Source of the DNA: a virus | Virus genome (UHGV): UHGV-0253013 | Direction: 5' to 3' (one strand) | DNA length: 45,926 nt | In this document: positions 15,095 to 44,257 of the stretch, one piece after another | Layout: each line of letters begins with the position of its first letter | Numbering within the stretch: the first letter of the stretch is position 1 | Notes under the pieces: model-generated | Database searches by the model: none | Seen by the model: only the letters and a program-made list of their open reading frames with translations | What the model was told of the DNA's origin: nothing | Position numbers and translations under genes: made by a program

Positions 15095-15202
15095 TCTTTA
15101 ATCCTTTGGTTAAGAGGTTGTTGGTTAAAGAGAAATGCACCAGGCGGTAACCAACCGCTTTTCGTGCGCGACACTAGGTGCAAAATTATTCTAACACACT
15201 AC

Positions 15203-15231
15203 TTGCACACCCCAATATAATAGGGTACTAT
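15203..15231 (+). promoter_or_regulatory. sigma70-like promoter, class A (TTGCAC-N17-TACTAT) with embedded AATAGGGTACTATT inverted repeat
   Basis: TTGCAC at 15203-15208, 17-nt spacer, TACTAT at 15226-15231; about 40 nt upstream of the ATG at 15272. Near-identical copies at 25976, 36521 (-) and 37566 (-). Confidence 0.5.
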
Positions 15232-15271
15232 TCACTTACACCAACGTTATTAACTTAAATAAGGAATTAAA

Positions 15272-25975: not shown

Positions 25976-26004
25976 TTGCAGACACCAACATAATAGGGTA
26001 CTAT
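25976..26004 (+). promoter_or_regulatory. sigma70-like promoter, class A (TTGCAG-N17-TACTAT)
   Basis: TTGCAG at 25976-25981, 17-nt spacer containing ATAATAGGG, TACTAT at 25999-26004; upstream of the ATG at 26032. Confidence 0.5.
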
Positions 26005-26031
26005 TCAGTTAACTTAAACAGGAGACGAAAG

Positions 26032-36359: not shown

Positions 36360-36520
36360 CAGCTTCACCCCTTTTCCCATCCACCCCGACTAGCAGCGAT
36401 TTAGTGTCGCCGTCGCACACCGAAGTGCTACCCATTATTTCGTAAGCGTCTACCAGTTCGCCTAAAGTCCAGCTACCGTACCAGCCCATCTTCTGTCTCT
36501 CCTCTCGTTTGTGTAAATGA

Positions 36521-36549
36521 ATAGTAGCCTATTCTATCTTAGTGTGCAA
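36521..36549 (-). promoter_or_regulatory. sigma70-like promoter, class A (TTGCAC-N17-TACTAT, minus strand)
   Basis: Minus-strand read CTTGCACACTAAGATAGAATAGGCTACTATTCA; the -10 overlaps an AATAGGCTACTATT inverted repeat. Confidence 0.5.
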
Positions 36550-37540: not shown

Positions 37541-37565
37541 TCCTCTGTCTCATTTCGATAAGTGA

Positions 37566-37594
37566 ATAGTACCCTATTATATTGGGGTGTGCAA
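37566..37594 (-). promoter_or_regulatory. sigma70-like promoter, class A (TTGCAC-N17-TACTAT, minus strand)
   Basis: Minus-strand read CTTGCACACCCCAATATAATAGGGTACTATTCACTTA, matching the 15203 copy over about 35 nt. Confidence 0.55.
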
Positions 37595-37821
37595 GAGAAT
37601 AGTTACGTTGCCGTTGTGATTCTTCGGGGAAGGTTGTGCCTTTATTCTTATTACTTGGTAACTAAAGGGCAGGCCTTAAGCCTGCCCAATAATCGTTACA
37701 TTTTTACGGTTGCGAATCTACGGCACATTAAGAAACAGTAGATATTTCAGCGGGTTACTTCTTTAAATGAGATTTAGATACACTTATCCTTAAACCCCAA
37801 GGCAAGCATCTCAGCTGTCTG

Positions 37822-37862
37822 GGAGGGGTTGACGAATCCCTCGGGGAGGGTTCGTCAACTCC
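37822..37862. repeat. imperfect inverted repeat centred on TTGACGAA / TTCGTCAA in the divergent control region
   Basis: GGAGGGGTTGACGAATCCCTC followed directly by GGGGAGGGTTCGTCAACTCC; arms pair over about 17 bp with small bulges. Confidence 0.5.
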
Positions 37863-37952
37863 GTAATATATACAAGTCCCAAAACCATTATACAAACATG
37901 TGTCAAGAACTTTCAATAACATTTTTGTAAAGATTAAATATTACAGAGATTG

Positions 37953-37981
37953 GTTGCTTTTACATTCCCGCTATCCTATAC
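37953..37981 (+). promoter_or_regulatory. sigma70-like promoter for the rightward replication genes (TTGCTT-N17-TATACT)
   Basis: TTGCTT at 37953-37958, 17-nt spacer, TATACT at 37976-37981; about 30 nt upstream of the ATG at 38014. Confidence 0.45.
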
Positions 37982-38013
37982 TCGGTTTCGCTAAACAAAC
38001 AGGAGATATAAAA

Positions 38014-38196
38014 ATGTCGCATTATATGACGCAGAATGAAGTAGCTGAACGTATCGGGGTGACACGTCAGACAATTAATAACTGGTTGCGCAGCGGCAAA
38101 TTCCCTGACTGCTGTATTAAGGTTATGGGCCGCCGTTTACCGGGAACATTTGACCGTAATAAAGTCGAAGCATGGATTAAGGAGAACGTGAAATGA
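38014..38196 (+). CDS. small HTH DNA-binding protein (AlpA/excisionase-like fold)
   Basis: ATG at 38014 after AGGAG; MSHYMTQNEVAERIGVTRQTINNWLRSGKFP is a typical small phage HTH regulator sequence. Confidence 0.55.
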   Translation: MSHYMTQNEVAERIGVTRQTINNWLRSGKFPDCCIKVMGRRLPGTFDRNKVEAWIKENVK

Positions 38197-40909: not shown

Positions 40910-40927
40910 AAGGGGCATTAAGCCCCT
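40910..40927. terminator. bidirectional terminator between convergent genes
   Basis: AAGGGGC-ATTA-GCCCCTT hairpin between the primase/helicase stop (40900) and the leftward XRE gene stop (40918). Confidence 0.5.
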
Positions 40928-41133
40928 TCACCTAGCGCCAGCCACTTGGCGTCTACCTCCAGCACTTCCGCCAGTTTAAACAGCGTTGCCGGGCGGACGT
41001 CCTGGGTTACCCCAAGTGCCAGCTGGTTAATTGCGCCCTGGGAAACCCCGGTCAGCACCGCCAGACGGCGCTGGGAAATACCGAGTTCTTTACGGCGCTG
41101 TTCTACACGGATGCCTAGTTCAGATGGTTGCAT
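40918..41133 (-). CDS. XRE-family HTH transcriptional regulator (Cro/CI-like)
   Basis: RRKELGISQRRLAVLTGVSQGAINQLALG is a canonical XRE helix-turn-helix; the only leftward gene in the rightward replication block. Confidence 0.7.
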   Translation of the reverse strand: MQPSELGIRVEQRRKELGISQRRLAVLTGVSQGAINQLALGVTQDVRPATLFKLAEVLEVDAKWLALGEGA

Positions 41134-41197
41134 GTCAATTACTCCTTAGTCAGTTGATATGTGAATAGTACCATATTAATTATTTTAGAAAAGCCCG

Positions 41198-41226
41198 TTG
41201 ACAAGTGAATAGTTCGCTATTATAGT
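41198..41226 (+). promoter_or_regulatory. sigma70-like promoter, class B (TTGACA-N17-TATAGT) with embedded operator-like inverted repeat
   Basis: TTGACA at 41198-41203, spacer AGTGAATAGTTCGCTAT, TATAGT at 41221-41226; a related GTGAATAGTACCATATTAAT element lies at 41161-41180. Confidence 0.55.
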
Positions 41227-41256: not shown

Positions 41257-41757
41257 ATGGATACCAAATACATTAAAACGTCTATGTTCAGTTATGAACC
41301 AGAAACTGGAGTACTTCGATGGGCTGTAAAGAGGGGCAAGGTTAAACCAGGAGACGAGGCCGGATGTTTGGCCAAAACATGCGGGTATAGAATGGTTAGA
41401 CTAGACGGTGTGTTAACCCCGGTACACAGGATAGTATGGGATATGCTTAATCCTACGGATAAACTACAAGAAGGTGACGAAATAGACCATATAGACCACG
41501 ATAAACTTAATAACCGAGCTTCTAATCTTAGAAAAGTTTGCCACCTATCAAATATGCACAACAGGTCAAAGCACAAGAACAACACATCAGGTGTAACCGG
41601 CGTGTCTTGGGTGGGGAAGCAAAATAAGTGGTATGCGTACATATACAAAAAAGGTACAAATTACAACTTAGGATACTTTTCAAAATTTGAAGATGCTGTT
41701 TTCGCAAGAAAAGAAGCAGAAATAAAACTCAACTTCCATAAAAATCACGGAGAATGA
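41257..41757 (+). CDS. HNH homing endonuclease with AP2-like domain (paralog 3 of 3)
   Basis: EIDHIDHDKLNNRASNLRKV HNH motif; C-terminal SGVTGVSW...YFSKFEDAVFARKEAE...NFHKNHGE parallels the other two paralogs. Confidence 0.8.
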   Translation: MDTKYIKTSMFSYEPETGVLRWAVKRGKVKPGDEAGCLAKTCGYRMVRLDGVLTPVHRIVWDMLNPTDKLQEGDEIDHIDHDKLNNRASNLRKVCHLSNMHNRSKHKNNTSGVTGVSWVGKQNKWYAYIYKKGTNYNLGYFSKFEDAVFARKEAEIKLNFHKNHGE

Positions 41758-44228: not shown

Positions 44229-44257
44229 TTGACACCTGAATAGTTAGCTATTATAGT
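44229..44257 (+). promoter_or_regulatory. sigma70-like promoter, class B (TTGACA-N17-TATAGT) with embedded operator-like inverted repeat
   Basis: TTGACA at 44229-44234, spacer CCTGAATAGTTAGCTAT, TATAGT at 44252-44257; same architecture as the 41198 copy. Confidence 0.55.

Follow-up and report, generated by a model that had tools for sequence, protein, structure and literature searches.

Divergent early promoter regions that contain terminators are common in phages. We analyzed one such region in UHGV-0253013, a viral genome of 45,926 nucleotides (nt; hereafter the window), in which a non-coding gap separates a leftward from a rightward set of genes, and we compared it with the closest described systems. 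In phage lambda, the strong promoter P_R' is followed by an untranslated RNA of ~200 nt (the 6S RNA) and the intrinsic terminator t_R', which together precede the lysis-gene operon, while the T7 primary origin and the T4 origins oriF and oriG are origins activated by transcription. The gap resembles the lambda unit, as that unit is generally described, in that a predicted leftward promoter (here P_L') is followed by a putative untranslated RNA and a terminator-like hairpin upstream of an operon that includes lysis genes. It differs as follows: neither a Q-like antiterminator nor a Q-binding site was identified in the window, a second predicted promoter (here class A) follows the terminator, and many small early-type genes come before the lysis genes. 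The likeness to the T7 and T4 origins is one of composition and position, with promoters beside an AT-rich stretch near the helicase-primase gene, whereas the window promoters are of the host sigma-70 type. As in bacterial bidirectional or insulating terminators, GC-rich hairpins with T-runs would stop transcripts between promoter clusters, but the second hairpin of the window, an inverted repeat, has no T-run, and the terminator lies inside ~100 nt of unusually conserved sequence.

The window is the genome of a virulent (lytic) Escherichia coli Kagunavirus (Guernseyvirinae). With a 2-kb query around the gap, which matched 282 phage records, the closest relatives were E. coli phages of this genus at 95-99% identity, including XY2, ORH_001 and Bas70-76 of the BASEL collection; of the latter, Bas70, 71 and 74-76 have precisely the region found in the window. 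The nearest annotated counterpart is phage fBC-Eco01 (OM272052; Arch Virol 2023, PMC9825357), whose record contains a 'phage promoter' found by PHIRE, a minus-strand terminator and a 'host promoter', all of them software predictions. The gap is homologous in the two genomes (95.6% identity), and the fBC-Eco01 features match window positions 37563-82, 37655-98 and 37887-916; by contrast, the rightward promoter (P_R), the inverted repeat and the polymorphism of an internal cassette described below are not in its annotation. We found no origin study or transcript map for this subfamily in the literature. Because divergent regions of this kind are common, and because three leftward elements had already been predicted for fBC-Eco01, we regard the region as largely ordinary. 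Leads for further work may come only from the cassette polymorphism and from the unusually strong conservation of the core of cassette type A.

Predicted promoters and a terminator-like hairpin in a divergent gap

The initial annotation described positions 37595-38013 (419 nt) as a divergent control region between a leftward early-type operon and a rightward replication operon. This description is correct, since the left arm, on the minus strand, consists of a series of small uncharacterized genes (one of them DUF551) followed by holin and endolysin genes, and the right arm opens with a helix-turn-helix (HTH) gene, continues with two small open reading frames (ORFs) and leads to a 740-aa replicative helicase-primase (AAA_25 domain; PHROG 3228); promoter-like elements occur in both directions. 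The features assigned to the interval are present, but its left limit needs correction: from start codon to start codon, the gap extends over 37532/37541-38013 (473-482 nt), with the left gene starting at ATG 37531 or GTG 37540 and the HTH gene at ATG 38014. We likewise saw no coding potential in it. ORFs called there in some GenBank records (37562-37741 and 37829-37930) are not conserved, being disrupted in relatives by 1-nt and 10-nt indels and by replacement of the whole cassette, and a small ORF or leader peptide was rejected because its start codon and reading frame are not conserved among relatives. For these comparisons we used ~140 related loci from GenBank phages, IMG/VR and metagenomes. 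The elements of the gap, with the two HTH genes that bear on their interpretation, are the following.

37563-37595, minus strand: class A promoter/operator-like motif, with -35 TTGCAC (37595-37590), a 17-nt spacer and -10 TACTAT (37572-37567)
37601-37735, no strand assigned: cassette type A, a 135-nt non-coding module bearing the GC hairpin, delimited by nhmmer match; relatives have a near-unchanged copy or none
37687-37657, minus strand: intrinsic-terminator-like hairpin, GGGCAGGC-UUAAG-GCCUGCCC (37687-37667), then UUUAGUUACC (37666-37657)
37736-37824, no strand assigned: lineage-specific spacer, with unrelated sequence in its place in other clades
37825-37862, no strand assigned: inverted repeat, a 17-bp hairpin (12 + 5 pairs, one bulge, 3-nt loop) built on TTGACGAA/TTCGTCAA
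37863-37953, no strand assigned: AT-rich core with back-to-back promoters, the lowest-GC stretch of the window
37887-37916, minus strand: predicted promoter P_L', sigma-70 type, TTGAAA-18-TATAAT, matching 11/12 consensus positions
37954-37982, plus strand: predicted promoter P_R, TTGCTT (37954-37959)-17-TATACT (37977-37982), before the HTH/helicase-primase operon
38014-38196, plus strand: gene for an HTH_17/excisionase-like protein of 60 aa, the first of the right arm
40918-41133, minus strand: Cro-like HTH gene in the replication arm

At the right edge of the gap, P_L' and P_R stand back-to-back in the AT-rich core, where 80 nt (37881-37960) have a GC content of 25%, the minimum of the 45.9-kb window. 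In almost every one of 49 relatives, an AT-rich minimum precedes the HTH start by ~80-150 nt, and both an AT-rich promoter core at the right edge and a class A promoter at the left edge are common to all Guernseyvirinae examined. P_L' (37916-37887) is one of two elements that had been overlooked initially, the other being the T-run that follows the GC hairpin on the minus strand. It has an equivalent in 47 of 49 unique relatives, in which the best leftward promoter reads TTGAC(A/T) or TTGAAA, a spacer of 16-18 nt and TA(A/T)nnT, and these equivalents span five promoter sequence variants. The TTGCTT-N17-TATACT promoter proposed for the rightward direction can be read directly from the sequence and is followed by a Shine-Dalgarno sequence (GGAG near 38002) and the HTH start codon. 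With a match of 8/12 to the consensus it is weak, which explains why P_R was missing from the promoter-scan list, and a TTG(C/A)TT-17-TATACT arrangement recurs at the same position in other clades. In all three predicted promoters, P_L', P_R and class A, the hexamers are separated by 16-18 nt.

The leftward class A promoter was also reported correctly as regards its presence, but it lies mostly outside the interval to which it had been assigned. Its motif, TGAATAGTACCCTATTATAT at 37563-37582 with the near-palindromic core AATAGTAcccTATT, occurs in seven copies in the window (15215-15234, 25988-26007, 36518-36537, 37563-37582, 41162-41181, 41206-41225 and 44237-44256) versus 0.04 expected by shuffling, and a 37-nt repeat that contains it recurs at 15202-15238 and 25976-26011. 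Three copies (15.2, 26.0 and 37.6 kb) precede a start codon of the same orientation by 35-45 nt, and since those at 15.2 and 26.0 kb lie before plus-strand start codons at this distance, the direction of the element could be fixed. The motif is identical to that predicted by PHIRE in fBC-Eco01, where a motif of this type was ascribed to a phage RNA polymerase (PMC9825357). As the core is near-palindromic (AATAGTA-ccc-TATT), it could double as an operator or fire both ways. Two copies stand in tandem directly upstream of the Cro-like HTH gene, an arrangement that suggests autoregulation, and a gene for an HNH homing endonuclease in the replication arm (41257-41757) adjoins both the Cro-like gene and these tandem motifs.

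The GC hairpin noted before at 37667-37687 has 8 perfect pairs and a 5-nt loop, with folding z-scores of -4.3 on the plus and -5.2 on the minus strand. Together with its T-run it reads as a putative leftward intrinsic terminator: the stem comprises 8-9 pairs, 7 of them G-C, the loop 3-5 nt, and the stem is followed by a U-rich tract (UUUAGUUA, 5 U in 8) that occurs on the minus strand only and lies above the scan threshold. The terminator scan flagged the element exclusively on the minus strand, in the window as well as in type A relatives among E. coli and Salmonella phages, and did likewise for cassette type C. Furthermore, the stem is kept by a compensatory change from C-G to U-A at the loop-closing pair (37674/37680) in 4 of 22 unique sequences.

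On the basis of these elements, we propose that the gap is a modular non-coding early control region acting at the level of transcription, with hairpins that serve as insulators or attenuators and a leftward untranslated RNA of ~220 nt, a model to which we assign about an even chance. Host RNA polymerase would start at two promoter clusters ~300 bp apart. From the right cluster (37887-37982), P_R would fire rightward into the HTH/helicase-primase operon and P_L' leftward, while the class A promoter (37595-37563), which forms the left cluster, would fire independently and leftward into the small-gene/lysis operon, and the intervening DNA would be non-coding, an assembly of hairpin modules that can be exchanged. 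Transcription from P_L' would begin near 37880, the resulting RNA would form the 38-nt hairpin of the inverted repeat ~18 nt from its 5' end, and termination would mostly take place at ~37660, where the GC hairpin and U-run lie, yielding the untranslated RNA; as an insulator or attenuator, the terminator would keep P_L' read-through out of the class A promoter. Because the hairpin modules would work with host machinery, they could be swapped or lost. Promoter firing, termination, and the length and role of the RNA are thus what we infer from the sequence, and the homologous fBC-Eco01 annotation supports the model in that its in silico promoter, terminator and 'phage promoter' lie at equivalent sites.

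The cassette and inverted-repeat modules

The cassette at this locus is exchangeable. Types B and C have interiors unrelated to that of type A but share its left flank (AGTTACGTTGCCGTTGTGATTCTT) and its right end (TACGGCA), and GenBank holds ~388 records of type A (from E. coli and Salmonella phages), 32 of type B (as in our loci L027 and L048) and 20 of type C (as in L029 and L030). There is always one copy per genome in these records, and always at this locus, and a scan of metagenomes yielded no fourth cassette type. In three Jerseyvirus loci (L058, L060 and L061) the cassette is cleanly deleted between imperfect 7-bp direct repeats, CAGTTAC/CAGATAC; this module is dispensable. The cassette was not found in E. 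coli genomes, and the 18 matches among GTDB species-representative genomes fell in unrelated taxa, which is about the chance number for an 18-mer in such a collection. Given the single copy, the fixed locus and these searches, we rejected the possibility of a multi-copy mobile element resembling a miniature inverted-repeat transposable element. In type C loci (e.g. L033, ~2530-2560), the (GAGT)n tract of variable length faces a (CGAAA)n-like tract, forming a small microsatellite. Many Jerseyvirus loci (e.g. L004, Ent1, 590-700) have ~110 nt of extra sequence between the class A promoter and the cassette, with a hairpin, GCGCTTGCC-GTGA-GGCAAGTGC, in which the heptamer TTGCCGT from the cassette flank appears again.

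Cassette type showed no linkage to the N- or C-domain of the helicase-primase, as both major N-domain clusters occur with types A, B and C, and so does the main C-domain cluster. The HTH variant of the window, too, is found with all three types, and also with right-hand regions that lack the inverted repeat. Such independent assortment, combined with the clean deletion, fits an autonomous cis-acting element that is read by host machinery.

The second module, the inverted repeat, had been placed at 37822-37862; it is present and is built on the TTGACGAA/TTCGTCAA pair as proposed, but its limits differ, the full hairpin occupying 37825-37862. The arrangement TTGACGAA-N14-TTCGTCAA at 37829-37858 is unique in the window, only 2 of 100 shuffles reach one match, and the hairpin has folding z-scores of -4.35 (plus strand) and -5.9 (minus strand). 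The module around it (37745-37905) occurs in only 21 GenBank records, all of E. coli Kagunavirus and 96.9-100% identical, and the repeat itself is carried by 10 of the 140 fetched loci, being restricted to one sub-lineage in which it shows just two substitutions, G37843A in the loop and T37860C, which turns a G.T into a G-C pair. A hairpin stands at this position in other lineages as well, in at least five unrelated sequences. Within the module, which is otherwise 97-100% identical over the 21 phages, lies a hypervariable patch of 6-7 nt (37796-37802) with the variants CCCCAAGG, CCCTAAAA, CCACAAGG and CCGTTGGG. In K1ind1-type relatives (e.g. L002, 1002-1045), the hairpin that takes the place of the repeat is followed by TTTT on the plus strand, and rightward transcripts would be halted there, immediately ahead of the P_L'/P_R core, in a mirror image of the predicted minus-strand terminator of the cassette.

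We considered whether the inverted repeat is a protein operator, with a dimeric DNA-binding protein (such as the product of the HTH gene at 38014 or of the Cro-like gene at 40918-41133) binding TTGACGAA/TTCGTCAA and thereby controlling P_L' or P_R. As such a reading would have it, the two 8-bp half-sites match perfectly and occur nowhere else in the genome, and genes for two small HTH proteins lie nearby. However, the half-site centers are 22 bp apart and the spacer between them is itself palindromic, so that the whole 38 nt form one continuous hairpin-type palindrome. Moreover, many relatives encode a 98%-identical HTH protein in the absence of the repeat, such that the site does not co-occur with this regulator, and the repeat lies 25-90 bp from the promoter hexamers, overlapping none of them. 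We consider an operator function of the repeat very improbable.

The three cassette forms and the deletion also bear on whether the hairpin modules have any function at all. They might be scars of recombination and palindromes that hitch-hike in an intergenic region prone to it, where only the promoters matter. In favor of this, the modules have been exchanged or lost in phages that are viable, imperfect 7-bp repeats bracket the deletion junction, and type C holds a length-variable (GAGT)n tract. Yet hairpins are retained in the same place with unrelated sequences, the terminator stem shows a compensatory change, and conservation of the type A core exceeds that of the adjacent gene. Functionless modules hence appear quite unlikely to us.

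This conservation is pronounced. Between Kagunavirus (E. coli) and Jerseyvirus (Salmonella), the type A core is 91-96% identical, compared to 76% nucleotide identity for the adjacent HTH gene, and in a 30-nt sliding comparison between the two genera the cassette and the 45 nt to its right have an identity of 0.86-0.98 versus 0.77-0.89 for the coding region. Conservation is equal on both sides of the hairpin. Within type A, complementary segments flank the hairpin (TGCCGT at 37609-37614 with ACGGCA at 37720-37725, and GATTC at 37618-37622 with GAATC at 37714-37718), and a closing inverted repeat TTGCCGT/ACGGCAA is possible in all three cassette types. Upon comparison with shuffled sequences, the folding z-scores of the two strands were -3.0/-3.8 for type A and -5.6/-5.1 for type B, while type C (-1.3/-1.2) folded no better than its shuffles. 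RNAalifold on type A gave a competing long-range pairing with a negligible covariation term, and covariation supported the apical hairpin only. Given the restriction of covariation to the apical hairpin, the rival pairing and the shuffle-like type C, we rejected the idea of a conserved RNA structure in which TTGCCGT/ACGGCAA would close a long nested hairpin. Rfam searches at gathering and permissive thresholds returned nothing significant for the gap, the loci with types B and C, or the right-hand regions of the Jersey and K1ind1 loci; the lowest E-value obtained in the gap was 0.38, and the weak, non-significant matches were all minus-strand look-alikes of small RNA 3' ends. As no complementarity of at least 11 nt to the rest of the phage genome went beyond chance, a trans-antisense target within that genome was rejected as well. 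A resemblance to CRISPR repeats (types I-F and I-E), considered for the flanks as well as the hairpins, was dropped, since no CRISPR-DR model matched.

These data bear on whether the cassette (type A, with B and C as alternatives) is the gene of a trans-acting structured non-coding RNA, that is, an early accessory RNA for host takeover or counter-defense of which the terminator-like hairpin would be one part. A type A core that outdoes the adjacent coding gene in conservation (in some windows up to 0.98), three forms plus a deletion at one locus that vary independently of their neighbors in a pattern typical of accessory functions, a position downstream of a strong predicted early promoter, and the z-scores of -3 to -5.6 for types A and B are all consistent with such a gene. 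On the other hand, there is no Rfam family match, covariation is confined to the apical hairpin, type C is no more structured than shuffled sequence, complementarity to the rest of the phage genome stays at chance level, and neither strand is singled out; conservation on both sides of the terminator also fits poorly with a simple small RNA that ends there. We judge a trans-acting RNA gene to be unlikely, and we give a similarly small chance to the wider proposal that cassettes A, B and C constitute a family not described before, made up of structured non-coding RNAs that are expressed early or of strand-specific DNA structures, with an accessory function such as counter-defense or host takeover.

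Returning to the transcriptional control model, we note that several observations weigh against it. Three sigma-70-like sites were found in the region versus 2.5 expected, which is not above chance, and the support for the promoters hence comes from their recurrence and conservation. The U-tract UUUAGUUA is short, the type B cassette has no terminator-like tail on either strand, and the inverted repeat lacks a U-run on both strands, which leaves its role in the transcript a guess. Neither strand is clearly favored by folding z-scores or covariation, nor by folding energies, G-U counts or alignment folds. The sole RNA-seq paper, on the near-identical phage K1B4, whose gap shows 95.9% identity to that of the window, gives gene-level values only (PMC12645636). 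Finally, a bare terminator leaves ~100 nt around the hairpin unaccounted for, which are 91-98% identical between E. coli and Salmonella phages while the neighboring gene is at 76%. As a terminator needs only ~40 nt, this points either to a recent spread of the cassette between genera or to a function that constrains nearly every base.

Proposed replication origin and switch region

The initial annotation expected a switch region or a replication origin in the gap. A lysogeny-type switch does not fit the locus, which belongs to a virulent Kagunavirus and has no repressor/Cro pair on its two sides. The case for an origin is mixed. In its most favorable form, the AT-rich core (37863-37953) and the divergent promoters would constitute a site of transcription-activated unwinding and helicase-primase loading, to which the hairpins would be accessory. 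The core lies directly upstream of the replication operon, it includes the lowest-GC 80 bp of the genome, as would suit an unwinding element, its position is conserved over clades, and cumulative GC skew reaches its lowest value in the genome at 37-38 kb. The skew minimum, however, coincides with the switch in gene orientation, and hence in transcription direction, and is therefore not independent evidence, while AT-richness is expected of any promoter cluster.

More specific origin signals did not appear. Direct repeats in the gap were limited to two-copy, chance-level instances, with no recurring k-mer and thus no array of iterons; AGTTAC is enriched in Jersey- and K1ind1-type regions only and not in the window. 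The gap contains no perfect DnaA box (two boxes have one mismatch each) and no IHF consensus, and Fis-like patterns were not above background. Origin and initiator also fail to co-vary, as types A, B and C are each found with each major helicase-primase N-domain cluster. Since the inverted repeat is lineage-restricted and the cassette can be exchanged or lost while the helicase-primase shows no linked change, the hairpins cannot be initiator-specific origin elements. Overall, we see an origin in the gap as a doubtful proposition, with the AT-rich promoter core as the sole plausible candidate in the region. A cos or pac site or a genome terminus was likewise rejected, because PhageTerm gave no termini in the near-identical fBC-Eco01, although several GenBank records open near the gap.

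Genome context and significance

Two further observations go beyond the gap. A search of the helicase-primase sequence against solved structures gave no match. GATC is nearly missing from the window (9 sites versus 179 expected), GAATTC and GGATCC are absent from it (~11 expected for each), and CTAG stands at 0.23 of expectation, a scarcity that looks like avoidance of restriction or Dam sites.

Phages of the genera Kagunavirus and Jerseyvirus, among them BASEL Bas70-76 and CM001, find wide use in therapy and engineering, and for these phages the present analysis provides a map of the region for testing, comprising three predicted promoters, a putative terminator and dispensable modules, and it points to safe versus unsafe places for engineering. 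Were the cassettes to form a family of non-coding RNAs or DNA structures, this would explain the near-invariance of the type A core across E. coli and Salmonella phages in comparison with the drifting neighbor gene. Should the type A core turn out to be a functional RNA, a new family of phage non-coding RNAs would be at hand, with natural allelic variants available for comparison.

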